In this document: positions 9,112 through 22,571 of the stretch, piece after piece
How the letters are laid out: each line of letters starts with the position of its first letter
Position numbering within the stretch: the first letter of the stretch is position 1
From: Shigella phage MK-13
Sequence record: MK509462
Direction: 5' to 3' (one strand)
Length of the DNA stretch: 64,000 nucleotides
Made by a program: the position numbers and the translations under genes
The notes under the pieces: model-generated
Database searches by the model: none
What the model was told of the DNA's origin: nothing
The model's input: only the letters and a program-made list of their open reading frames with translations

Positions 9112-10620
9112 ATGGCAGACATTCAGATTGTTAAGGTTAACGAAGTCCGCATGCGTTGCATCGCAGATCTTTCTATCAGGGAAGAGCTGAATGACTACTT
9201 CAAATTCGAAGACCCGAACTTCGTTCCCAACCCCTTCTCTAAATGGGACGGGGTTGTTCGCTTGTTCACCAAGTCATCCGGTCTGATTGATATCGGCCTA
9301 CTGTTTGAGGTGTTCAAGTTCTGCAAGAACAACAAATACACCATTGAACTGGATCCGGCTCTGAAGTACATTCAGGACATCCCAGATCAAGAAATCCATG
9401 ACTTCATCGACAGTCTCCATCCAAAGATCCGCACCGAAAATCACGAATACATCGATGCTGAGACCCGCGACTATCAGTACGACACCATCGCCAAGGCTAT
9501 GCGTCAAACCAGATGCGTCTGTGAACTGGCTACGAGTGCTGGTAAGTCCTTTATTCTGTATGTCATGGCGCGGTACTACAGGCAGCGCAGAGAAGCTCTC
9601 GAAAGTCCTCTGAAGACGCTTATCGTGGTGCCGTCGATTCACCTGGTCACTCAGCTGTACGACAACTTTGAAGAGTACGCACACGGCAGCGATTGGAAGC
9701 CCGTTGCCAACACTCAGTTGATCTTTGAGGGCGCGACAAAGGAAATCAGCAAACCAATCGTCATCAGTACATGGCAGGGCATTCAAGACCAGCCGAAAGA
9801 ATGGTTCCACCAGTTCGGTGACATCGTGGTGGATGAAGTGCACACCTCCAAGTCTGAGAAACTGTCCTACATCCTCAACAACTGCATCTACGCCGACCAG
9901 CGCCTGGGGGTTACAGGTACGCTGTCGAACACCAAAGTTGCCGGGCTTCAGGTGGTGGCTCACTTCGGGGCGTACCATAAGATCATCACGGCTCGCGACC
10001 TTATCAATCTCGGGTACGCCACTGACATCAAAGTGAAGATGATTCAGCTGAAGCACACTCCGGCGGATGCTGTTGGTCTGGACGGGGATTATACCAAGGA
10101 AATAGAATACCTTATTACACACCAGTCCCGCAACGAACTGATCGCCAAGATGGCACTGAATCTGAAAGGGAACGTGGCCATCATGTTCGAGCGTATTGAC
10201 GCCCACATGATGGTTGTGTACGATATGCTGAGCGCAGTCAAGCCCAACGTGTTTGTCATCAACGGGGAAGTGAAGATCGAAGACCGCCGCCGCATACAGA
10301 AAGCGATGGAGGATGGAGAGGATATCACGTTGTTGGCTTCATACGGGACAATGCAACAGGGTGTGTCAATCAAGAAGCTACACCACCTTGTACTGGCGCA
10401 CCCGAGCAAGTCATATATCCGCGTCATACAGACATTGGGTCGTCTGATGCGTCAGCACTCCTCCAAGGACGTCGCGTGGATATGGGACTTAGTGGATGAT
10501 GTGTCGTACAACGCCAGCACGAACCACGCTATCAGGCACTCTCATGAGCGATACAAGTTCTACCTGACAGAGCGCCACCCTGTGGAGTTCATGAAGGTGG
10601 CGCTGGGTAATCACGACTGA
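9112..10620 (+). CDS. uvsW: UvsW SF2 DNA helicase
   Basis: Colinear similarity to T4 UvsW: N-terminal domain, Walker A ATSAGKS, DEVH box, VTGTLS, helicase C motifs. Confidence 0.9.
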   Translation: MADIQIVKVNEVRMRCIADLSIREELNDYFKFEDPNFVPNPFSKWDGVVRLFTKSSGLIDIGLLFEVFKFCKNNKYTIELDPALKYIQDIPDQEIHDFIDSLHPKIRTENHEYIDAETRDYQYDTIAKAMRQTRCVCELATSAGKSFILYVMARYYRQRREALESPLKTLIVVPSIHLVTQLYDNFEEYAHGSDWKPVANTQLIFEGATKEISKPIVISTWQGIQDQPKEWFHQFGDIVVDEVHTSKSEKLSYILNNCIYADQRLGVTGTLSNTKVAGLQVVAHFGAYHKIITARDLINLGYATDIKVKMIQLKHTPADAVGLDGDYTKEIEYLITHQSRNELIAKMALNLKGNVAIMFERIDAHMMVVYDMLSAVKPNVFVINGEVKIEDRRRIQKAMEDGEDITLLASYGTMQQGVSIKKLHHLVLAHPSKSYIRVIQTLGRLMRQHSSKDVAWIWDLVDDVSYNASTNHAIRHSHERYKFYLTERHPVEFMKVALGNHD

Positions 10621-10988
10621 TCTTGATTCACATAGGCGGGGGTGGCCTCGCCTTCATCAGATACTGCGCCGAACAATTTGTCCAGAGAAACCAGACATTG
10701 TGCGTTCAGGTGTTCACTGATAGTGTCCTTCAGCATTTGTTCGCTGCCCAATTTGAATGGCAGAACCTTCGCTTCGACGCCGTTTTCAAACGTCACCACA
10801 CCGACATACAGACCAACTTTCAGGCCTGCCATCAAACCCAGAGGGACAAATCGCGGCTCCGATGGTAAGTTCTTGTCTGACGCCAGCTGCGCCAGATAAA
10901 CTGGGGTGCCTGTGACAAATTGCCCTGCGGTGAGGATGGCGTCTGGCTTACTGCATCCGACCGCATATAATCCTACGAACTGTTTCAT
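10611..10988 (-). CDS. hypothetical protein (125 aa)
   Basis: Minus-strand ORF with GAGAG RBS, convergent with uvsW. Confidence 0.4.
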   Translation of the reverse strand: MKQFVGLYAVGCSKPDAILTAGQFVTGTPVYLAQLASDKNLPSEPRFVPLGLMAGLKVGLYVGVVTFENGVEAKVLPFKLGSEQMLKDTISEHLNAQCLVSLDKLFGAVSDEGEATPAYVNQDQS

Positions 10989-11328
10989 ATATTACTCTCG
11001 TGTGTTGGTTAACATGACATACATATTATTTCGCGTGCATGTTTAGACCAAATAAATTAATTTTGCTGTTGAATAAAAATTGCTTTCCTGTTGAACAAAT
11101 GGCGCGGTATTATACGAGTTGTGAGTGTTAACGAACAACGAGTATTTGTTTTATGAGCGAAGCGAATAGGATTAATAAAGGTTATTATCTTTAATAAAGT
11201 CCATAAATGCCGAAGGCATTTATTAATAACGCGTAGCGCAATTTGCCACTTGTTCTATAAGCACAACACAGCGATACTAGATTGCGTCAAACATGACTTG
11301 AACCCCACTATATTTTGAGGATACATAA

Positions 11329-11997
11329 ATGCAAGAGATCACTCTCTCCGAACGTACACTCCAGTTGCTGGCCAACTTTGAGACCATCAACCCATCTATC
11401 GTTCTGACACCGGGTAAGATGCTGCGCAGCATTAACGATTCGTCTACTGTTATCGCCGTGGCACAGATCGAAGAAGACTTCCCGTTTGAGTTCCCTATCC
11501 TGGACCTGACCAAACTTCTGGCCATCCAGCGCCTGCCTTCCTTCAAAGGCGGTAAAGCCGAATTCCATCAGGACTACATCCTGTTGAAAGGCGAAAGCTC
11601 TCAGCTGCAATTCTGGCGTTCTGCTAAAGAACTCACTGTTGTTCCGGCTGACACCATTGAACTGCCGTCTGTCGACTTTGAAGCGATCATCACTCCAGAG
11701 AAGATGAAAGAACTGACCCGCGCCTGTTCTACCCTCGGTCACAAGACTGTGCGCCTGGTTGCTCAGGGTGGCAAAACTCGTCTGGTTGCAACCACCACTA
11801 CCCTGGATAACTCCAACAACTACACCGTTGAGCTGGGTGAAACCGCGCTGCCGGACTTCGTCATGCCACTGGACGTTGCCAACCTGAAGATGATCGAAGG
11901 CAACTACACTCTGCGTGCCTGCGCTGAGCTGCAGATGGTGAACTTCCAATCATCCGACGCGACGATCAATTACTTCGTCGGCGCACAGATTGAGTAA
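11329..11997 (+). CDS. sliding clamp, gp45-like
   Basis: Length and sequence pattern match T4 gp45; precedes gp44/gp62 as in T4. Confidence 0.9.
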   Translation: MQEITLSERTLQLLANFETINPSIVLTPGKMLRSINDSSTVIAVAQIEEDFPFEFPILDLTKLLAIQRLPSFKGGKAEFHQDYILLKGESSQLQFWRSAKELTVVPADTIELPSVDFEAIITPEKMKELTRACSTLGHKTVRLVAQGGKTRLVATTTTLDNSNNYTVELGETALPDFVMPLDVANLKMIEGNYTLRACAELQMVNFQSSDATINYFVGAQIE

Positions 11998-12078
11998 TCA
12001 ATCTCCAGCCTGATGCTATAATGTGTGGGCGGGGGCGTTCCCCGCCTATTTGAAATGATTCTTCTACACGAGGCTGAA

Positions 12079-13068
12079 ATGTCTAATATCACTATCGTTT
12101 CCGACCAGTACGCATGGGAAAACAAGTACCGCCCTGACAACCTGGACGAGATCATCATCCCTCAAGACGTCCGCGCTAAAATCCATGGCTACATTACCAG
12201 TGGCAACGGTAACATCCCGTCTATGCTGTTCTACTCCCCTCAGCCTGGTACTGGCAAGACTACCTCTGCCCTGGCCGTGTGTAATGAAATCGGCTGTAAG
12301 CAACCACTGATGATCAACGCATCCCTGGACAACAGCATCGACGTTATCCGTGACCGCGTGATTCAGTACTCTACTGGTGTGAGTGTATTCGGTGGCCGCA
12401 AAGTCGTTATCCTCGACGAAGTAGAGCGTCTGTCTATGGCGGCACAGGAGTCGCTGAAGGGTATTGTGGAGAAGGTCTCCAAGAACTGTTCATTCATCCT
12501 GACCACCAACGCCAAGCAACGTGTGAACGAACCTCTGCGCTCTCGTTGCCGTGAAATCGACTTTATCTGGAATGAGACCGAGGCTGATGAGGTAAAACTT
12601 CAGTTCATGCGCCGCTGTGCTGAAATCCTTCGCAGCGAAGGTGTTGAGTATGACCCTCCTGTGTTGGCTGCTATTGTCAAACGTCATTTCCCCGATAACC
12701 GCCGCATCATGGGTGCCCTACAGGATAACGTCACCACCTACGGCAAGATCGATGAACGCGCCCTCGCCGTATTGAAATCTGCCGACATGGGTGTGTTGGT
12801 TGATATGCTGAAAGGCAATGACTGGGCTGGCATGAAGCAGTGGGTGACTGACAACCAGAACTACATCACCGAAGACTTCTATTCCCGCTTCTTCCAGTTC
12901 TGTGTACCACAGGATAAAGAGAAGCCGATGCTGGTTCAGAATGAGTCTATCCCTGATCTGGTATGCGTATGTGGTCAGTCTCAGATTGAACACCGTCAGG
13001 TCGGCGATGTCTGGCTGCATGCTGTGTTTTTCCTGACCAACGTCATGCTCAACATCAAGTGGAAGTGA
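12079..13068 (+). CDS. clamp loader large subunit, gp44-like (AAA+)
   Basis: Walker A PQPGTGKTT, DEVE box, SRC motif; T4 gp44-like N-terminus. Confidence 0.9.
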   Translation: MSNITIVSDQYAWENKYRPDNLDEIIIPQDVRAKIHGYITSGNGNIPSMLFYSPQPGTGKTTSALAVCNEIGCKQPLMINASLDNSIDVIRDRVIQYSTGVSVFGGRKVVILDEVERLSMAAQESLKGIVEKVSKNCSFILTTNAKQRVNEPLRSRCREIDFIWNETEADEVKLQFMRRCAEILRSEGVEYDPPVLAAIVKRHFPDNRRIMGALQDNVTTYGKIDERALAVLKSADMGVLVDMLKGNDWAGMKQWVTDNQNYITEDFYSRFFQFCVPQDKEKPMLVQNESIPDLVCVCGQSQIEHRQVGDVWLHAVFFLTNVMLNIKWK

Positions 13069-13072
13069 TACT

Positions 13073-13495
13073 ATGGCCGCCCCTGGATTGTTCGATTACC
13101 TGGCTGCTCTGAACAGCAGCAAAGAAAACCTTCTGCAGTCTGATGACCCAGAAGTGTTGAAAGGATTCGACCCGTTTATGACGCGGCGTGGTTTAGCTCA
13201 GAGCAAAGACACTCTGGTGACTGCACAGCAGATGAACAAGCTGCATGCCGTTACTCCATGGATGCAATGGTCATATGCCTTTCACACCATTCCGGCGCGG
13301 AAACGCTACGACAAATGGTCTAAGAAAGGTCCGATTGATCCTGACGTGAAGTTGCTCTCCGAGTACTTCTACATCAGCATGGAGAAGGCATCCGAGTACG
13401 TCCGTTTCTTGCCGAAGGAAGTCCTGGCCGAGATACGCGAGAAGATGGGACGTACTGAGCTGAACGCCAAAGCGAAACCGCGCAAGGCTAAGTAG
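13073..13495 (+). CDS. clamp loader small subunit, gp62-like
   Basis: Position after gp44 and block ARKRYDKWSKK resembling T4 gp62 RGKRYGKWAKL. Confidence 0.75.
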   Translation: MAAPGLFDYLAALNSSKENLLQSDDPEVLKGFDPFMTRRGLAQSKDTLVTAQQMNKLHAVTPWMQWSYAFHTIPARKRYDKWSKKGPIDPDVKLLSEYFYISMEKASEYVRFLPKEVLAEIREKMGRTELNAKAKPRKAK

Positions 13496-13524: not shown

Positions 13525-13989
13525 ATGGCGCGCAATACGCTAGACATATTGAACATTTCAGCCGTCAACGATGAGGCCAGCATCGTTGATTGTATGGTTG
13601 AAGTTCAATTGAACCAAGATCGGCCAGGAATATTCCTGGGGATCAAGGAAACACTGAGCCGAATTGGGGTAAACACGCGCCAAGAGCCGAATACTCTGTA
13701 TCAGACTTGTCATATTCTTCACAAGTATGGCAAGTATTATATCGTCCACTTCAAGCATCTGTTTATGCTGGACGGGCATTACAACGGGTTTAACCGCGAA
13801 GATGTCCTGAGGATGAACCGCATCATCAAGCTGCTCGAGCAGTGGAATATGGTGAAGGTCATTCATCCCGAGCAGGTCACCGAAGCCGCCGATATGTCAC
13901 GCATTAAAGTGGTTAAACACGATCAGGTTCCTGAATGGAAGCTGGTTCCAAAATACATTATCCGGCCTACAAAGGCCAAAAGCGAATAA
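13525..13989 (+). CDS. regA: translational repressor RegA
   Basis: Strong similarity to T4 RegA (LYQTCHILHKYGKYYIVHFKHLF...EWKLVPKYIIRP). Confidence 0.85.
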   Translation: MARNTLDILNISAVNDEASIVDCMVEVQLNQDRPGIFLGIKETLSRIGVNTRQEPNTLYQTCHILHKYGKYYIVHFKHLFMLDGHYNGFNREDVLRMNRIIKLLEQWNMVKVIHPEQVTEAADMSRIKVVKHDQVPEWKLVPKYIIRPTKAKSE

Positions 13990-14005: not shown

Positions 14006-14875
14006 ATGACAACTACATTTTCTAAGAACGTGAATCTGAATCTGGCTTTCGGTAATGCAAAGGGCGATGTCACATCGCCCGACTTTGGTAAGATCCGCAA
14101 TCAGGCGAAACTGGTGCTGGAAGAGACCCGTGAACTGTTGGAGGCGGCGTACTACGATTGCGATGTGAAACTGGATCTGGTGCTCACACCTAAACAAGAA
14201 CCTTACCAGACCAGAACCATTCAGGAAATCCTGAAGGATATCATGGACGCCCAGGGTGATATCACCACTGTCAACGACGGTGTGGCTCATATTGCTGGTT
14301 TCGACGGTGACGAATGCTTACAGCGCGTGTATGCCTCTAACATGAGCAAGTTCATTCGTAATGAAGGTGAAGTTGTGCCTGCACTGGATTACTACTACAA
14401 CAAAGGCTTCCCACGCGAAAGTCTGCGCATCGAAGGGGAATTCCCCCAGGCGTGCATCAAAGTGGTAGACACCATCACCGTCGACGGCAAAGAGTACCCG
14501 GCTGGTAAGTTCCTGAAGAACATGGCAACCTTCAAAGAGCCGGACTTCAGTGATATGCTGACCACCGAGCCTAAGCGCCAGATCACCGAAATCATTCTGA
14601 CGGGCACGGCTACCCCAGGTCGACTCGGATGCAACGAACACGCTGGTGTTGCCTTCGCTCCGTTCGACTTTGTTGACGAGATCGTGGGATACACCAAGAT
14701 GGGCTTCCAGGCGTTCTCTGGCGAAACAGTCGAGAGTTATATTCCCGTGTTTGTTTTCAATGAAGACAACTTCCCAACTCTACCGTTGATCTGGGGTGAA
14801 TGGAAAGCCAACGTCCGTATCTATGTGGCCAGCCCAGTGCAATCATCTATCACCCAGCTGACCCGTATCGATTAA
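14006..14875 (+). CDS. hypothetical protein; N-terminus possibly MazG/gp56-like all-alpha NTP pyrophosphatase
   Basis: LVLEETRELLEAAYYD resembles the EExxE metal-binding helix of MazG-type enzymes; rest unassigned. Confidence 0.3.
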   Translation: MTTTFSKNVNLNLAFGNAKGDVTSPDFGKIRNQAKLVLEETRELLEAAYYDCDVKLDLVLTPKQEPYQTRTIQEILKDIMDAQGDITTVNDGVAHIAGFDGDECLQRVYASNMSKFIRNEGEVVPALDYYYNKGFPRESLRIEGEFPQACIKVVDTITVDGKEYPAGKFLKNMATFKEPDFSDMLTTEPKRQITEIILTGTATPGRLGCNEHAGVAFAPFDFVDEIVGYTKMGFQAFSGETVESYIPVFVFNEDNFPTLPLIWGEWKANVRIYVASPVQSSITQLTRID

Positions 14876-14944
14876 GATATACAGTTATTCACTAAACAAC
14901 AGAGGCTATAATGGCCTCTGTTTTTCGTATTCTAAGAGGATACC

Positions 14945-16165
14945 ATGAAAGATAAAGCCCTGGACGTCCCGTACTGCGGTGTCCGTGAAGAAAAGATAAA
15001 GTCGGCCAAACCGGTTCTCAGTCCGACCCATACCCGCCTTTCTTACGAATGGATGAGCGAGCGCTATAAGATCCACGTCAAGAAGGACGTCCAGCGTCTT
15101 CCTGCTCCTTGGACGAATAATCCTATACTACGGCAGGTCAAGTTCTGTAACGTCCGGAGAGAGCACGACAGGCAGTCTCTTAACCTGATCAACAACATCG
15201 TCAACAACGATGCTCTGGGTATGGCAGACAAGATGTTTAACTGCGTGCTGTTCCGCATGTTCAACCTCTGGGATCCGATCCAGGCTATCGGCGGCGCGAT
15301 GGCGATCAAAGAATTCGCCAAGATCAACCTTGACGCAACCCGCGAACGACTTCAGAAGTTCGAGGCCGACGGCGGCAAGGTGTTCACCAATGCCTTCAAC
15401 ACAGGCGGCCTGAAGCAATGCCTGGCTTTCCCTGAGCTGGTTGTCAACCACAAAGAGCAGCGCTTCGGTGGGATGATGGTGAACCTGATCTGTAAGGACG
15501 GTTCGACCCAGAACATGGATTATAAGGAAGCCAAGGCTATTGCTGAAGCAGAGCCGGACTTCTACACCATAGAAGGCTGGGAGCCGTACATGCCAATGCG
15601 TGTCATCCGTTCCCTGAAGGCATTCGTCAACAAGTATCCAAATTACTTCCATGACCTACTGCGCCTTGGTACTCCTCTGGAAGTATACCAGCGCATGTAC
15701 GACGACATCGAAGGTCTTGGTCCATTCCTGGCCTATCAGATCTGGGTTGATTTCACGTACATGCCTGGTTATCCGTTCAGTGAGAACCACTTCACGATCG
15801 CCGGACCGGGCTGTCGCGCAGGTATTGATCTGCTGTTCCTGAACAAGGACGGCATGACTCACGAAGAATGCATATTCTGGCTACGGGATAATCAGGACGC
15901 AGTATACTCCCAATATGGGTATGTTCGCGAGCAATTCTGGTCGGCCGAAGAGCCTGTAGACCAATGCATGAACGTTATGCAGCTGGAGAACATGTTCTGT
16001 GAACTGAGCAAGTACACTCGCTGTGTTGAGGCGGTTGGGCGCGGTGAAAAACCTCGGGGCAAGGTCAGCTATGACGGCGGTGGGGAATACAAAAAGCGCT
16101 GTGATGAAGTCGTGCTCAAACGTGGTTCCGTCAATTTGCTGGACCGTTTGAAGAAACCTGAATAA
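14945..16165 (+). CDS. hypothetical protein (406 aa)
   Basis: Long ORF with AGAGGA RBS; no motif recognised. Confidence 0.6.
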   Translation: MKDKALDVPYCGVREEKIKSAKPVLSPTHTRLSYEWMSERYKIHVKKDVQRLPAPWTNNPILRQVKFCNVRREHDRQSLNLINNIVNNDALGMADKMFNCVLFRMFNLWDPIQAIGGAMAIKEFAKINLDATRERLQKFEADGGKVFTNAFNTGGLKQCLAFPELVVNHKEQRFGGMMVNLICKDGSTQNMDYKEAKAIAEAEPDFYTIEGWEPYMPMRVIRSLKAFVNKYPNYFHDLLRLGTPLEVYQRMYDDIEGLGPFLAYQIWVDFTYMPGYPFSENHFTIAGPGCRAGIDLLFLNKDGMTHEECIFWLRDNQDAVYSQYGYVREQFWSAEEPVDQCMNVMQLENMFCELSKYTRCVEAVGRGEKPRGKVSYDGGGEYKKRCDEVVLKRGSVNLLDRLKKPE

Positions 16166-16280
16166 AGATTCCCTTTACTTCATTCTTCAATAACTTTTTT
16201 CAACGTATTATTGACCTCACTTAAACGAAGCGCCCTGGCAAACGGGGCGCACATTTGAACTGAAACAGGAAGACTACATC

Positions 16281-18299
16281 ATGTCAGAATTTAAGCCCTT
16301 CGCAGTAGCCGTAAACAATAATGTGCTGGCCATGTCAGCAACTGGTCTGTTCATGACCAACATCGATAAAGATGCTCTGTGGGATCTGTACCTGAACTCT
16401 TTCCCTGCTGGCACCAACCCGCTCTACCGTGAGCGCACCGAGCACGACTGCACCTGCTGTAAACAATTCATCCGTAACATCGGCGGTGTGGTGACCATCG
16501 ACGCCGACCTGAACGTGATCTCTATCTGGGATAACATTCAGCTGGGTAACGAATACGACGTTGTCGCTGCGGCGCTGTCTGCGTATGTCAAGCAACACGC
16601 AATCGTCGACGTGTACTTCAACGATACCAAGAAAGTCGGTGTTGAGTCGAATCACGAAATGAAAGACGGTAATGTCCGCACCTACAACCACTTCCACACC
16701 GACCTGCTGCCCAGCTATGTTCTGCGGGCTGATGCCATCGCTTCTAAGAAGGGTGAAATCCGCCAGGCGATTGAAGTGTTTGAGCGCGGCCTGCGTGAAC
16801 TGTCTCTGGAATCGGCCGAAATCGTTCTGGAACTGATTGATCAGAATTCTCTGTATCGTGGTGAAGAGCACAAAGCTGCTGTGCAGGCGTTCGTGACGAG
16901 CAAGACCATGTACGAACAAACTGCAGAAGAGAAACGCGCTCTGTGGGCTTGGCGTACTGGCTACCGTGCAAACGGACACACCCCTCACGGCATCCGCAAT
17001 ACCGTGATTGGCTCTCTGTTGGTAGACCTCAATGAAGGTCGGGATCTGGAAACCGCCGTGAAGTCCTTTGAAGCCAAAGTCGCTCCGACGAACTACAAGC
17101 GCCCAACCGCGCTGGTCACGAAGTCCATGATTGAAAACGCGCAGAAAGAAGTCGAAGCGCTGGGTCTGACTGATTCACTGGGTCGCCGTTATGCCGTGTA
17201 TGACGATCTGACCATCAACAACGTTTTGTTTGCCGACCTGGCAGCACAGAAGAAGATGGACCCGTTTGCTCAGCTGGCGTCTGAAGTGAAGACTCCGACC
17301 AAGTCCCTGGACAAGGTTGAAGAGATCACCATCGACGACTTCCTGACCAACGTGTTGCCAAAGGCGCATTCCCTGGAAGTGCTGGTTGAGAACTCTCACA
17401 CTGGCAACCTGATGTCCCTGATCGCCCCGGCTACGGTGGGTGCTCCTAACCTGTTCAAGTGGAACAACGGCTTCAGCTGGTCATACAATGGCGAAGTGGC
17501 CGACTCCATCAAAGAGCGCGTGAAGACAGCAGGCGGCAACGTCGACAGCTTCCTCCGTGTGTCGCTGGCGTGGCATAACAACGACGACCTGGATCTGAGC
17601 CTGAACGATCCTCTTCACAACCACGTGTATTTCAACAACCGTCGTTCGGCAACTGGTGCAACCCTGGACATCGACATGAACGGTATGGACGGTATTGACC
17701 CGAACCGCCGTCCGGTGGAGAACATCTTCTTCAGCGATGAACGCAAGCTGCGTGACGGGAACTATGAGTTCTATGTCACCAACTACAGCAAGCGCGAAAC
17801 CTGCGATGTGGGCTTCGAAATCGAAGTTGAATACAAAGGCCAGACCAAGCGCTTCTCGCATCCTGGTCTGGGTAACAAAGACCGCACGTTGGCTGTTGTG
17901 GTTCAGGTACGCGCTGGTCAGGTGGTCGACATCAGTTCTACCCTGAAAGACGACGCTCGCTCTCAGGAAATCTGGGGCATCAAGACCTCCGTCTTCCAGA
18001 AGGTACAGCTGGTTCTGAACTCACCAAACCATTGGGACGGCGAGCAGACGGGCAACAAGCACGTGTTCTTCATCCTGGAAGGTTGTGCTAACCCTGTCGG
18101 CACCCGTGGCTTCTACAACGAATATCTGAAGCCGGAACTTGATAAACACCGCAAGGTTTTTGAAATGTTAGGTGGTAAGATTAAAGTACAGCCAAGCACT
18201 GAGCAGCTGTCCGGTCTGGGCTTCTCTACCACCCAACGCAACCACGTGTTCGTGAAGGTGAGCGGCTCGTTCAACCGCACTGTGAAAGTTGTGTTCTAA
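16281..18299 (+). CDS. hypothetical large protein (672 aa) with N-terminal Cys cluster
   Basis: Long ORF with AGGAAG RBS; HDCTCCKQF motif; no catalytic family recognised. Confidence 0.6.
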   Translation: MSEFKPFAVAVNNNVLAMSATGLFMTNIDKDALWDLYLNSFPAGTNPLYRERTEHDCTCCKQFIRNIGGVVTIDADLNVISIWDNIQLGNEYDVVAAALSAYVKQHAIVDVYFNDTKKVGVESNHEMKDGNVRTYNHFHTDLLPSYVLRADAIASKKGEIRQAIEVFERGLRELSLESAEIVLELIDQNSLYRGEEHKAAVQAFVTSKTMYEQTAEEKRALWAWRTGYRANGHTPHGIRNTVIGSLLVDLNEGRDLETAVKSFEAKVAPTNYKRPTALVTKSMIENAQKEVEALGLTDSLGRRYAVYDDLTINNVLFADLAAQKKMDPFAQLASEVKTPTKSLDKVEEITIDDFLTNVLPKAHSLEVLVENSHTGNLMSLIAPATVGAPNLFKWNNGFSWSYNGEVADSIKERVKTAGGNVDSFLRVSLAWHNNDDLDLSLNDPLHNHVYFNNRRSATGATLDIDMNGMDGIDPNRRPVENIFFSDERKLRDGNYEFYVTNYSKRETCDVGFEIEVEYKGQTKRFSHPGLGNKDRTLAVVVQVRAGQVVDISSTLKDDARSQEIWGIKTSVFQKVQLVLNSPNHWDGEQTGNKHVFFILEGCANPVGTRGFYNEYLKPELDKHRKVFEMLGGKIKVQPSTEQLSGLGFSTTQRNHVFVKVSGSFNRTVKVVF

Positions 18300-18343
18300 A
18301 CCTGATTTGAAATTGTAACCCATTCATCATTGAGGATAGTAAA

Positions 18344-18715
18344 ATGTTTGATAAAGCAACCCGTCTGAAACTGCGCTTCGAATCCAACAAAGGTCTGCTG
18401 TCTGTTGAGCAGGTCTGGGATCTGAGCCTGACTGCCCTGAACGAAATGGCGAAAAGCCTGAGCCGTCAGGTGAAGGCAGCGGAAACCGATGAAGAAGATT
18501 TCATCGGCACCAAAAGCAACGTTGACTCCGAACTGCAGCTGCGCTTCGACGTTGTCAAGCACATCATCGGCGTTAAGCTGAAAGAGCGTGACGACAGCAA
18601 AGACGCGGCAGAGCGTAAGGCGAACAACCAGGTTATCCTGGAGCTGATCCAGCGTAAGAAACAGCAGGAGCTGGAAGGCAAATCTGTTGAAGAACTGGAA
18701 GCGCTGCTGAAATAA
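18344..18715 (+). CDS. hypothetical charged helical protein (123 aa)
   Basis: ORF with GAGGA RBS, followed by terminator. Confidence 0.5.
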   Translation: MFDKATRLKLRFESNKGLLSVEQVWDLSLTALNEMAKSLSRQVKAAETDEEDFIGTKSNVDSELQLRFDVVKHIIGVKLKERDDSKDAAERKANNQVILELIQRKKQQELEGKSVEELEALLK

Positions 18716-18730
18716 CCTGTCGGCCTGAGC

Positions 18731-18757
18731 AACCCCGCCATGTGCGGGGTTTCTTTT
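18731..18757 (+). terminator. rho-independent terminator
   Basis: aaccccgccatgtgcggggtt followed by T-run. Confidence 0.7.
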
Positions 18758-18768
18758 GGACAAAGAAT

Positions 18769-19170
18769 ATGAAACCTGTCATCTGTGATTACTGCGGCCT
18801 CCCAGCCGAATTCGTCGGTGGTGACGTCCTCCACCCTCATCGCCCTGACCTCCGCAATCTGAAGTTCTGGGTATGCACTCCATGTGGCGCTCGCGTCGGT
18901 TGCCATGCCCATGGCGACGGTAGACAACCTCTGGGAAGGATGGCGAATGCCGCTCTCCGTGCCGAGAAGCGAAAAGCCCATAGATCGTTTGACCCATTGT
19001 GGAAAAGCGGAGAGAGGAGCAGGAGCGACGCTTACAGTTGGCTGGCGCATAAGCTGGGGATCAAGAAGCGTGATTGCCATATCGGCTTGTTCGATATCGA
19101 CATGTGCCGTAAAGTAGTTGTTGTATGCAACCAATTACGGGAAACACAGAATGGCAACCATCAATCGTAA
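18769..19170 (+). CDS. zinc-finger protein (Cys/His-rich, 133 aa)
   Basis: CDYC...C..CGARVGCH Cys/His cluster. Confidence 0.5.
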   Translation: MKPVICDYCGLPAEFVGGDVLHPHRPDLRNLKFWVCTPCGARVGCHAHGDGRQPLGRMANAALRAEKRKAHRSFDPLWKSGERSRSDAYSWLAHKLGIKKRDCHIGLFDIDMCRKVVVVCNQLRETQNGNHQS

Positions 19171-20055: not shown

Positions 20056-20910
20056 ATGTTTCGTTTGAAATTGAACGACCAAGATGTGTTCTACAAACAC
20101 TTCACCTTCCCAGGTGGTGAGGAACATATCAAGATCCAAAAGTCTGGTATCCCTATCGGCCACGTCCAGAACGTGGCGATTGATGCTCACATCAAATCAT
20201 CAGCCGACTTCGTTGAGCTGGCACTGCTGGTTAACGCCGTGCGCGGCCTGGGTAACGTGGACCGTCTGACGACCTTCCATGCGTATATCCCTTACTTCCC
20301 GTATGCTCGCCAGGACCGCCATTGCGACTTCGGCGAGCCTCTGTCCGTGAAGTGGGCGGCTGAGTTCATCAATAGCATGAACTTTGACCGCGTGGCGATC
20401 AAAGACCCTCACAGCCATGTTGTGTCTTCTCTTATCAACAACGTCCATGTGGTCCCGCAAGATTACATCGTGCGGCAGTATCTGGGCTGGTTCATCCGTG
20501 GGAACAACGCTGTGTTGGTAGCCCCTGACGGCGGCGCGGCTAAGAAGACCGAAGCCCTCAGCCTGTCTCTGGATGGCGTTCCTGTTGTCTACGGACACAA
20601 GAACCGTGACGCCAAGACTGGTGAGATCATTGGGGTGAGTATTACAACCCCTGAACTGATCAAAGACCGTTATCTGGTGGTGGTCGATGATATCTGCGAC
20701 GGTGGGCGCACGTTCGTTGAGTTAGGCAAAGAGCTTCAGAAGCACAAGCCCAAACACATGACGCTCTTCGTTACCCATGGCATCTTCAGCAAAGGGCTTT
20801 CCGTGTTCGACGGGATCTACGATGCTGTGTATGCCGACACTGTCTGGTGGGAGAATATCACCGCCGACGGTCTTCCTTTCAAAACTGAAAATACAGGACG
20901 TGTAAAATGA
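20056..20910 (+). CDS. ribose-phosphate pyrophosphokinase (Prs)-like; candidate ADP-ribose pyrophosphokinase
   Basis: Prs signature YFPYARQDR and PRPP-binding loop VVVDDICDGGRT. Confidence 0.85.
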   Translation: MFRLKLNDQDVFYKHFTFPGGEEHIKIQKSGIPIGHVQNVAIDAHIKSSADFVELALLVNAVRGLGNVDRLTTFHAYIPYFPYARQDRHCDFGEPLSVKWAAEFINSMNFDRVAIKDPHSHVVSSLINNVHVVPQDYIVRQYLGWFIRGNNAVLVAPDGGAAKKTEALSLSLDGVPVVYGHKNRDAKTGEIIGVSITTPELIKDRYLVVVDDICDGGRTFVELGKELQKHKPKHMTLFVTHGIFSKGLSVFDGIYDAVYADTVWWENITADGLPFKTENTGRVK

Positions 20911-22571
20911 GCATGCGCCACTTAGACCCAATCCATGCAATCGACTTCTACAAATCAGGGCACATCTATCAGTTCCCTGAAGGCAGCGAGCTGGTGTTCT
21001 CCAACGGAACTCCGCGCTCCAACAAACTGTTCAACTCTCACCTGCCGAAGAACGGCGTGGTGGTCTGGGGCATCCAGGGTTTCATGACTTGGTTCCATGA
21101 ACTGTTTGACGAAGCATTCTTCCAGCGCCCGAAGGCCAAGGTGTTGAAGAAGTATGCCCGTCGCATGAACAAAGTCCTGGGTCCAGGCCGCGTCGGCACA
21201 GAGCATATTGAAGCCCTGCATGACCTCGGCTACCTGCCTATCGAAGTCCGCGCGCTGCCTGAAGGCACCATGTGCCCGTATGGCGTTCCGGTGTATGTGA
21301 TGTTCAACACCCTGCCGGAGTTCTACTGGCTGACCAACTATCTGGAGACTGTGTTCAGCTCTGAGATCTGGAAGCCGATGACGAACGCCACTATCGCTCT
21401 GCATTACAAGGCACTGATGGTGAAAGCTGCCCTCGCTACAGGCGTGTCACCGGACCATTGGTTCATCGACTACCAAGGCCACGACTTCTCCTTCCGTGGC
21501 ATGAGCGGGTGGCATGACGCGGCGTCTTCCGGTTCCGGTCATCTGGTGTTCTTCAAAGGCACCGATACCAACCCTGCCCTGGACTTCGTTGAAGAGTATT
21601 ATGGCGCAGACATCGACGAAGACTATGTCGTTGCTGGCTCCGTTGCGGCTACAGAACACGCCGTGATGTGTATGGGTACGAAGGATGGTGAATTCGAAAC
21701 CTTCCGCCGCCTGGTGCAGGACGTGTATCCTGATGGCATCGTCAGCATCGTGTCTGATGCGTGGGATTACTGGCAGGTCATCGACGACTATCTCCCTCGC
21801 CTGAAAGATATTATCATGGCGCGTAACGGTAAAGTCGTGATCCGCCCTGACTCGGGCGACCCAGTTCATATCGTCGGCGGCTACCGCATTGAGGGGTTCA
21901 AAGACCGCGCCACGCTGAACATCAGCGGCGTGTCTAGCAGCACTGAAGTCATTCACATCGAAGAGACGAACACCTATCACCTGATCACAGGCGAAGGCAC
22001 GATCAACTCTCTGATGGCAGACGACCGTAATATCATCAGCCGTTCTGAAGCAGTCGGCTCTATCCAGCGACTGTGGGAGATCTTTGGCGGTACTCAAACT
22101 GAAACTGGCCACTTCCTGTTGGACGAACACATCGGTCTGATCTACGGTGACTCCATCACCCTGGCGCGTGAAGACCAGATCTTTAGCCGTCTGGCTGGCC
22201 GGAACTTCGCTTCCATCAACGTGGTGTTCGGTATCGGTTCCTACACCTACCAGATGAACACCCGTGACAGTACTGGCACGGCGGTGAAAGCAACGGCTGG
22301 TAAGGTGAACGGTGAATTCCGTGAGATCTTCAAAGAGCCGAAGACCGACAAAGGCGGGACTAAAAAGTCTGCGCGTGGTTTCCTTAAAGTCATTAAAGAC
22401 TCTCAGGGTAAACTAGTGTTGGTTGACGGTATCACCTTTGATCAGGTGCAAGACGCCGACAACCAGCACCAGCTGGTGTATCGTGATGGCAAGTTCTTCA
22501 ACACTCAAACTCTGGAAGATGCGCGTGTCCGCGCCGCTCCTCTGGTAGCAGAACTGGCATCACAAATCTGA
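20907..22571 (+). CDS. nicotinamide phosphoribosyltransferase (Nampt/NadV)-like; candidate nicotinamide ADP-ribose transferase
   Basis: N-terminal DFYKSGHIYQFP matches Nampt DSYKVTHYKQYP block; length 554 aa; start overlaps Prs stop (ATGA). Confidence 0.85.
   Translation: MSMRHLDPIHAIDFYKSGHIYQFPEGSELVFSNGTPRSNKLFNSHLPKNGVVVWGIQGFMTWFHELFDEAFFQRPKAKVLKKYARRMNKVLGPGRVGTEHIEALHDLGYLPIEVRALPEGTMCPYGVPVYVMFNTLPEFYWLTNYLETVFSSEIWKPMTNATIALHYKALMVKAALATGVSPDHWFIDYQGHDFSFRGMSGWHDAASSGSGHLVFFKGTDTNPALDFVEEYYGADIDEDYVVAGSVAATEHAVMCMGTKDGEFETFRRLVQDVYPDGIVSIVSDAWDYWQVIDDYLPRLKDIIMARNGKVVIRPDSGDPVHIVGGYRIEGFKDRATLNISGVSSSTEVIHIEETNTYHLITGEGTINSLMADDRNIISRSEAVGSIQRLWEIFGGTQTETGHFLLDEHIGLIYGDSITLAREDQIFSRLAGRNFASINVVFGIGSYTYQMNTRDSTGTAVKATAGKVNGEFREIFKEPKTDKGGTKKSARGFLKVIKDSQGKLVLVDGITFDQVQDADNQHQLVYRDGKFFNTQTLEDARVRAAPLVAELASQI

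Follow-up and report, generated by a model that had tools for sequence, protein, structure and literature searches.

Two probably unrelated gene units in the block downstream of regA of an Agtrevirus phage

On the T4 map, gene 43, which encodes the DNA polymerase, adjoins regA. What takes this site in a phage whose regA gene is followed by three large genes of another kind? The question is raised by Shigella phage MK-13 (sequence record MK509462), of which a stretch of 64,000 nucleotides, called here the window, was analysed. Between positions 14006 and 18299, three genes encode proteins of 289, 406 and 672 amino acids (aa), which the original prediction, made from the DNA letters and their translations, took for uncharacterised proteins and, speculatively, for one block devoted to nucleotide-pool or DNA-base modification. 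We propose instead, with a probability of roughly 80%, that the block combines two unrelated units kept in order in the Ackermannviridae, one formed by a MazG-like gene and an HMUDK_hel gene, and the other by a DUF8224 gene and a small downstream partner. We favour this reading over a single module because DUF8224 genes mostly have no hypermodification gene nearby and travel with their partner.

A conserved gene order that joins two separable units

The three open reading frames (ORFs) and the motifs originally quoted for them were confirmed exactly. All lie on the plus strand after regA: the 289-aa MazG-like protein is encoded at 14006–14875, the 406-aa HMUDK_hel protein at 14945–16165 and the 672-aa DUF8224 protein at 16281–18299, followed by the gene for a charged, helical 123-aa partner protein (18344–18715, plus strand; phrog_2018). 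Because they match so widely (339 phage records for the 289-aa protein, 1072 database proteins for the 406-aa protein and 557 phage records for the 672-aa protein), we regard the three ORFs as genuine genes rather than chance ORFs. The whole 4.3-kb stretch has megablast matches in 279 phage records, with 99.0% DNA identity to Salmonella phage P46FS4 and 96–98% to SKML-39 and Shigella phage Ag3, and by this likeness the window phage is an Agtrevirus (Ackermannviridae, the ViI-like phages), as is P46FS4.

The order regA, MazG-like gene, HMUDK_hel, DUF8224 and small partner is the same in the window and in ViI, P46FS4, SKML-39, Ag3 and CBA120. In the ViI record it reads regA (orf00162), the MazG-like gene (orf00161), orf00160 and orf00158, the last three corresponding to Vi01_131c, Vi01_130c and Vi01_129c plus Vi01_128c. 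By tblastn, the identity between ViI and the window is about 60% for the 289-aa protein, 83.5% for the 406-aa protein and 76–83% for the 672-aa protein, and there is no substantive difference between the two gene sets apart from a DUF8224 gene that is split in the ViI record and a pair of downstream genes that ViI lacks, both described below. In 22 of 23 Ackermannviridae loci, the three genes lie next to one another in a common orientation.

The wider neighbourhoods of DUF8224 give another picture. Among 125 DUF8224 loci, an HMUDK_hel or MazG-like gene is found nearby in seven, all from Ackermannviridae, and the other 118 have no hypermodification gene nearby; kinase, ADDT, hydroxymethylase, dUTPase_2 and pyridoxal phosphate (PLP) genes are absent from the flanks of all 125. 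Even among the Ackermannviridae, HMUDK_hel and DUF8224 are separated by anything from 74 to 1349 nucleotides (nt), and in Marshall and Maynard homing endonucleases are annotated inside the aligned block. The constant companion of DUF8224 is the small downstream gene, as the 123-aa protein is 37–46% identical to the product of the gene after DUF8224 in unrelated contigs. A hidden Markov model (HMM) of this partner placed it on the same strand as DUF8224 in 79 of 83 viral loci, at most 150 nt downstream in 57, and the four viral loci without it hold less than 540 nt of downstream sequence. In the bacterial and archaeal loci with a callable DUF8224 ORF, 51 in all, the partner lies directly downstream in 42 and shares the strand in 47, the four genome loci without it having less than 350 nt of downstream sequence. 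Clustering of the neighbourhoods revealed no conserved neighbour besides the partner; a DUF3268 gene is near DUF8224 in 12 of the 125 loci, six of them outside the Ackermannviridae. The single nucleotide- or base-modification block of the original prediction therefore gives way to a composite, in which DUF8224 belongs with its small partner.

Many of the apparent neighbour clusters proved to be antisense ORFs within the conserved DUF8224 gene, whose seeming conservation across loci arises because the sense genes are conserved. The window has such long antisense ORFs as well (18296–18763, minus strand, and antisense frames of 16281–18299), which overlap the partner gene and DUF8224. They can displace the true small partner gene in length-based gene calling.

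The hypermodification pathway and the polymerase lie elsewhere

ViI-like phages are the textbook case of hypermodification with 5-(2-aminoethoxy)methyl-dU (5-NeOmdU), a base that replaces about 40% of T in ViI and CBA120 (PMC11721090). According to the published pathway, phage enzymes make 5-hydroxymethyl-dUTP (5-hmdUTP) and deplete dTTP and dUTP, and the polymerase inserts 5-hmdU; the kinases gp67 and gp243 of ViI then phosphorylate 5-hmdU in the DNA, the amino acid:DNA transferase (ADDT) gp247 adds serine, and the PLP decarboxylase gp226 gives the final 5-NeOmdU. The window itself has no tblastn match to the ViI kinases, hydroxymethylase or other pathway proteins. In P46FS4, a tblastn search with the ViI proteins found all the other pathway genes, outside the region that matches the window: kinase 1 (gp67; 88% identity between ViI and P46FS4), dUMP hydroxymethylase (78%), dNMP kinase (92%), dUTPase_2 (62%), the PLP decarboxylase (gp226; 93%), kinase 2 (gp243; 85%), ADDT (gp247; 92%) and the DNA polymerase (87%). 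Judging from this gene content, the window phage very probably makes 5-NeOmdU like ViI and CBA120, and the MazG-like and HMUDK_hel genes would form part of its ViI-type thymidine-hypermodification system.

As to the site of gp43, it is correct that no polymerase follows regA here. However, the three genes do not replace it: ViI and P46FS4 annotate a DNA polymerase of about 1000 aa elsewhere, and the polymerases of two further hypermodification clusters described below (L150 and L151) carry DNA_pol_B domains. We rejected the idea that the three genes are a functional replacement of gp43, the polymerase being located elsewhere in the genome of relatives. The accompanying claim that the three proteins show no helicase, polymerase, P-loop or radical-SAM motifs was upheld, as we found no Walker A motif, no CxxxCxxC and no Pfam family of these kinds. 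Direct sequence searches of the PDB with all three proteins gave nothing meaningful, and the NCBIfam and PADLOC scans found nothing.

A putative pyrophosphohydrolase beside HMUDK_hel

For the 289-aa protein, residues 1 to about 190 are predicted to form an all-alpha nucleoside triphosphate (NTP) pyrophosphohydrolase domain of the MazG/PRA-PH type, and residues ~190–289 a C-terminal extension, about 100 residues long and specific to the lineage, shared by Kuttervirus, Agtrevirus, Limestonevirus and Taipeivirus. The protein matches phrog_2144 (‘MazG-like pyrophosphatase’) at 1.2e-131 and phrog_671 at 2e-20. The peptide first noticed, LVLEETRELLEAAYYD, begins at residue 36 and holds the E39-E40-x-x-E43 motif (EExxE), which is followed by D81-x-x-x-D85 (DxxxD), the two being acidic metal-binding motifs. 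E40, E43, D81 and D85, together with S111-N112-x-x-K115-F116 (SNxxKF), stay unchanged in homologs with as little as 38% identity. Moreover, Pseudomonas phage SM1 gp125, which matches the 289-aa protein by tblastn at E=3e-19, scores 31.6 bits against Pfam PRA-PH (cut-off 21.3) and 22.0 against MazG (cut-off 22, just reached). The invariant acidic motifs and this transitive link to Pfam bear out the MazG-like pyrophosphatase domain that was originally proposed.

The EExxE and DxxxD motifs are common to the all-alpha NTP pyrophosphohydrolases DR2231, PRA-PH/HisE and the phage dTTPase/dUTPase enzymes such as gp18 of Acinetobacter phage 15599, from which the 289-aa protein differs by a beta-rich insertion (GKxxPxGKFLK) and by the ~100-residue C-terminal extension of its own. 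When the family profile was compared with the PDB, the MazG-like DR2231 was the top match, although a weak one (E=0.031). This small family counts 277 database proteins, essentially all from Ackermannviridae. Residues 1 to ~186 also occur as stand-alone proteins in Serratia phage Kevin, Pectobacterium phage CB4 and the Pseudomonas phages Cygsa01 and SM1, and in Kevin (Miltonvirus) the short homolog stands in the same synteny.

What would such an enzyme do for the phage? Most likely it hydrolyses a canonical or unwanted (d)NTP, our best guess being dTTP or dUTP, and would thereby bias the nucleotide pool. In a thymidine-hypermodifying phage, a dUTPase/dCTP-pyrophosphatase-like enzyme serves as dTTPase/dUTPase (PMC13458397). 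A role in clearing dTTP or dUTP is reasonable because the 289-aa gene always adjoins HMUDK_hel in the Ackermannviridae, lying directly upstream of it in 23 of 23 loci; a MazG-like gene is also found near HMUDK_hel in an unrelated locus from an uncultured phage (L196, described below). We consider a role of this gene in thymidine hypermodification plausible.

Several observations weigh against both the assignment and the role. Neither Pfam (at E<=10) nor NCBIfam has a family that the protein matches, and its AlphaFold2 model is unusable, with a mean predicted local distance difference test (pLDDT) score of 44.8 from a shallow alignment; this low confidence follows from the fact that every homolog listed in the alignment is at least 76% identical. 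As for the role, ViI-type phages have a dUTPase_2 gene beside the hydroxymethylase, which is a more obvious candidate for the dTTPase/dUTPase, and the 289-aa protein has short homologs in N4-like and Pseudomonas phages that are not known to hypermodify T. Both facts weaken the inference that it clears dTTP or dUTP.

The same facts favour another explanation, namely that the protein is a general house-cleaning or counter-defence NTP pyrophosphatase, acting on aberrant dNTPs or on nucleotide alarmones or signals, and that it lies near the HMUDK_hel gene (gp160 in ViI; see below) by lineage history alone. Short homologs in the N4-like Pectobacterium phage CB4, in the Pseudomonas phages SM1 and Cygsa01 and in others agree with this explanation, and so do the two further all-alpha NTP pyrophosphatases encoded by ViI-type phages, of which dUTPase_2 is one. 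On the other hand, lineage history would have to account for a neighbourhood with HMUDK_hel that is invariable in the 23 Ackermannviridae loci, and MazG-like genes recur in other base-modification islands; neither point is decisive. We find a house-cleaning function somewhat doubtful and prefer a pyrophosphohydrolase that serves the hypermodification pathway.

The 406-aa protein belongs to a published hypermodification gene set

Searched against Pfam, the 406-aa protein hits PF18723 (HMUDK_hel, 5-hmdU DNA kinase helical domain) with E=3e-81 and 273.3 bits, the cut-off being 25, and it covers profile positions 4–278 of 281. PF18723 was formerly named aGPT-Pplase clade 1 and was originally classed as a paralog of a transferase (aGPT-Pplase1; PMC5889632). 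Thus, of the aGPT-pyrophosphorylase and hmU kinase families that the original prediction had named for comparison, the first was found in the 406-aa protein, and the second was not, as it has no kinase Pfam match. It is 83.5% identical over 407 aa to ViI Vi01_130c (orf00160), which has the same flanking genes. Since the gp numbers of Lee et al. track the orf000NN notes in the ViI record (gp67 is YP_004327432 and gp226 is YP_004327553), orf00160 equals gp160, and the 406-aa protein is, by sequence and gene order, the syntenic ortholog of ViI gp160. In the published work, gp160 is listed as aG/PT-PPlase1 (Table 3) and was one of five recombinant lysates that jointly turned 5-hmdU DNA into 5-NeOmdU (PMC5889632). 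The 406-aa gene is a recognised member of the published hypermodification gene set, and to call its product uncharacterised, as was done at first, was an overstatement given a named Pfam family and an ortholog that has been handled experimentally.

How this protein contributes is less obvious from its sequence. It has no [AG]xxxxGK[ST] Walker A motif and no match to PF18748, PF18747 or other kinase Pfam families, and having no P-loop it is not a kinase. A helix-hairpin-helix, DNA-glycosylase-like fold has been predicted for the HMUDK_hel family (PMC5889632, PMC8989533), and the 406-aa sequence contains a hairpin-like motif, GLGPFLAYQ. Homologs down to 38% identity conserve GLGxFLAYQ, GPGC (C290) and FCELSKY (C352-E353), and the Ackermannviridae members carry about 80 inserted residues that the shorter homologs lack. 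A useful comparison is gp186 of phage SP10, a 5-hmdU DNA kinase fused at its C-terminal side to an aGPT-Pplase1/HMUDK_hel domain of the family of the 406-aa protein (Table 3, PMC5889632); this fusion accounts for the Pfam name. In contrast to gp186, the 406-aa protein is stand-alone and lacks a P-loop, the kinases being separate genes far off in the genome. Taken together, we propose that the 406-aa protein is most likely a non-kinase, DNA-binding accessory of the 5-hmdU DNA kinase, rather than a transferase.

The neighbourhoods of HMUDK_hel were counted with small home-made HMMs in 64 viral loci, 23 from Ackermannviridae and 41 from other phages. At least one other pathway gene lies within 10 kb of HMUDK_hel in 17 of the 41. 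Homologs of about 45% identity stand within contiguous hypermodification clusters (L150 and L151), in the order DNA polymerase B, HMUD2 kinase, (ADDT), HMUDK_hel, HMUD1 kinase, thymidylate-synthase-like gene, dNMP kinase and dUTPase_2, and HMUDK_hel begins 4 nt after HMUD2 in one of these clusters. HMUDK_hel is conserved in every Ackermannviridae genome examined and is found inside hypermodification clusters elsewhere, even though the pathway runs in vitro in its absence. A rather different context is that of L196, from an uncultured phage of about 50 kb, in which the neighbours of a 335-aa HMUDK_hel homolog (locus 9417–13254) are an HD-domain protein, a TET-associated glycosyltransferase (TAGT; PF20691), a dCMP deaminase and the MazG-like protein already mentioned. 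From this context, the HMUDK_hel family may serve more than one base-modification route, including one of the glycosylation type.

There are also findings that speak against an accessory of the kinase. In vitro, purified kinase, gp247 and gp226 suffice to make 5-NeOmdU with no gp160 present, and the enzyme table of 2021 does not list it (PMC8989533), so gp160 may be dispensable or act otherwise. In 24 of the 41 loci from outside the Ackermannviridae, the small HMMs found no kinase within 10 kb of HMUDK_hel, and no 5-hmdU kinase was detected at that distance in L196 either. As the neighbours in L196 are the TAGT glycosyltransferase and the HD-domain protein, a kinase-accessory role may not be general.

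One could therefore ask whether the 406-aa protein is itself a catalytic group transferase that installs a second, minor or sequence-specific thymidine modification. The family was first classed as a transferase paralog (PMC5889632), and the invariant C290 and C352-E353 recall the essential Cys and the neighbouring Glu of ADDT (PMC8989533). In addition, SP10 lacks a clade 2 enzyme and yet makes glutamyl-T (Table 3, PMC5889632), and the glycosyltransferase beside HMUDK_hel in L196, with no detectable kinase, would suit a transferase as well. The comparison with ADDT, however, offers little to this idea. ADDT, or aGPT-Pplase clade 2 (ViI gp247, which Pfam labels ADDT at 3.2e-58, and M6 gp51), comprises amino acid:DNA transferases of the same pathway and of similar size that were once deemed paralogs of clade 1, now labelled HMUDK_hel, and that have a conserved Cys beside a Glu; but the 406-aa protein has no detectable sequence homology with ADDT (no PF18724 match even at E<=10, BLASTP against gp247 E=1.1, hhalign probability 2%). 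Moreover, reports on ViI and CBA120 mention only one hypermodified base, and the new family name chosen by the Pfam curators is that of a kinase helical domain. We therefore consider a transferase unlikely, and retain the kinase accessory as the proposed role.

A DUF2786/DUF7168 protein adjoins HMUDK_hel in three differing phage contexts (L150 8240–8941, L151 8609–9283 and L196 8566–9264), and may be a further conserved companion of the family.

DUF8224 and its partner form a widespread gene pair

The 672-aa protein, whose Cys cluster HDCTCCKQF begins at residue 55, belongs to DUF8224 (PF26675), as proteins 97–99% identical to it carry precomputed PF26675; our local Pfam scan gave no match for it, and a Pfam scan of 12 family members gave nothing consistent. 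The family is very large and conserved to an unusual degree: in a library clustered at 50% identity, 4942 representatives reach E<=1e-3 and 1233 reach E<=1e-30, and the best 150 are 40–53% identical and nearly all full length. The 557 GenBank phage records with DUF8224 include rV5-like phages (CR3, KpS8, Ro1) and phiCbK-like Caulobacter, Bastille-like Bacillus, N4-like and cyanophage genomes, and it is present as well in Alteromonas, Cellulophaga and Microcystis phages and in Vibrio and Pseudomonas phages whose genomes measure about 75 kb; phages of all morphotypes carry it. Another 57 DUF8224 loci come from the genomes of bacteria and archaea, among them Bradyrhizobium, myxobacteria, Actinoplanes, Lachnospiraceae and Methanobrevibacter. 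The pair of DUF8224 and its partner is found in phages whose hosts are Gram-negative and Gram-positive bacteria, cyanobacteria, Bacteroidota and archaea, and for a phage gene pair without an assigned function it is comparatively widespread and well conserved.

The structural model suggests five domains: an alpha/beta domain at the N terminus, in which C57, C60 and H137 are conserved, then a helical domain, a second alpha/beta domain, a TerD-like beta-sandwich (residues ~420–560) and a conserved C-terminal domain. Residues ~420–560 of the model have the TerD beta-sandwich fold. TerD is a tellurite-resistance protein with a Ca-binding beta-sandwich (PDB 2kxt, 2qz7); its DUF8224 counterpart is embedded in a 672-aa protein of five domains, and the other domains have no PDB relatives. 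Foldseek with the 672-aa model gave no PDB match at E<=1e-3, and the fold search of BFVD returned uncharacterised viral proteins only. Profiles of the whole protein and of the TerD-like segment likewise found nothing significant among PDB sequences. Besides the TerD-like domain and the Cys/His site, DUF8224 thus has three domains without detected relatives among solved structures. Our literature search found no papers on DUF8224, PF26675, phrog_1735 or phrog_2018, and none of relevance on TerD in phages.

It is conceivable, at slightly less than even odds, that DUF8224 and its partner of about 125 aa are a previously undescribed, autonomous two-gene phage system with an uncatalogued activity, for example a host-takeover or counter-defence enzyme. 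Within the composite proposed above, the pair is an autonomous cassette that passes among very different phages, unlinked to base modification. As a low-confidence guess, DUF8224 might be a metal-dependent enzyme or sensor that acts during takeover on some universal target in the host, the partner being an adaptor or regulator; metal dependence is suggested by the conserved Cys/His site and by the TerD-like, possibly Ca-binding domain. One point counts against this guess. The likeness to TerD is one of structure, since no TerD match came from the Pfam scan of the 12 family members or from the search of PDB sequences with the domain profile. In any case, the fixed pairing and the independence from base modification narrow how DUF8224 should be studied.

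That all three proteins are one DNA-base-modification module, the 672-aa protein being an extra modification enzyme, is very improbable: adjacency and common orientation in all but one of the 23 Ackermannviridae loci, the absence of a terminator-like site between the 406-aa and 672-aa genes in our consensus scan, and the roughly 60% of ViI thymidines that are not 5-NeOmdU and leave room for further chemistry (PMC11721090) agree with it, but 118 of 125 DUF8224 loci have no hypermodification gene nearby, many DUF8224 phage groups lack 5-HMUDK (the 5-hmdU DNA kinase), the steady companion of DUF8224 is the 123-aa gene and not HMUDK_hel, from which its distance varies, and 5-NeOmdU synthesis in vitro requires none of the three proteins (PMC8989533). 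Hence the early guess of base or nucleotide-pool modification stands for the 406-aa protein, by its PF18723 match and its gp160 ortholog, is plausible for the 289-aa protein and is not supported for the 672-aa protein. The finding as first posed is an ordinary one, because its correct part had already been published for ViI-like phages.

Two observations on DUF8224 itself deserve mention. Matches of 23–29% identity that cover the N-terminal half only (about residues 24–400) were found in Xanthomonas phage Bosa, Stenotrophomonas phage DLP4, Pseudomonas phage AAT-1 and the jumbo phages Serratia Kodama and Xanthomonas LucasX, and the structural matches of the model in BFVD include a giant-virus (Indivirus) protein; from these half-length and structural matches, the N-terminal domains may be an independent, wider-spread unit. 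Furthermore, the DUF8224 gene is split in the ViI record (L003 35300–37319) into Vi01_128c and Vi01_129c, with matches to residues 1–480 and 488–672. Its relatives have one intact 672-aa ORF, and the split could come from a frameshift or an error in sequencing, or the gene could be truly disrupted in ViI.

Neighbouring genes and other features

Upstream of the block, the regA translational repressor gene (13525–13989, plus strand; Pfam Translat_reg 1.9e-34) anchors the order gp45-gp44-gp62-regA, which recurs in ViI, P46FS4 and Serratia phage Kevin. The homologs of gp45 (11329–11997) and gp44 (12025–13068) come from the ORF listing, and that of gp62 (13073–13495) was identified by Pfam. In the consensus scan, pattern matching alone indicated two terminator-like hairpins on the plus strand: one with an 11-bp stem and a T run (14898–14922), between the MazG-like and HMUDK_hel genes, and a strong one with an 8-bp stem of which six pairs are GC, also with a T run (18731–18751), where the DUF8224-partner pair ends.

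Further downstream, a 284-aa ribose-phosphate pyrophosphokinase (RPPK)-like gene is followed, with a 4-nt overlap, by a 554-aa nicotinamide phosphoribosyltransferase (NAMPT)-like gene (20056–22571, plus strand), the pair that ViI does not have at the position occupied in the window. RPPK and NAMPT are variably present among Agtrevirus and have been linked to NAD+ reconstitution against NAD-depleting defences (PMC11721090). Upstream of this pair, a DUF3268 zinc-finger protein is encoded at 18742–19170 on the plus strand (Pfam 2.8e-35). The RefSeq record of P46FS4 has a ‘hypothetical protein’, ORF48 (L001 16781–17149, minus strand), wholly inside the DUF3268 ORF, and this is probably a gene call on the wrong strand.

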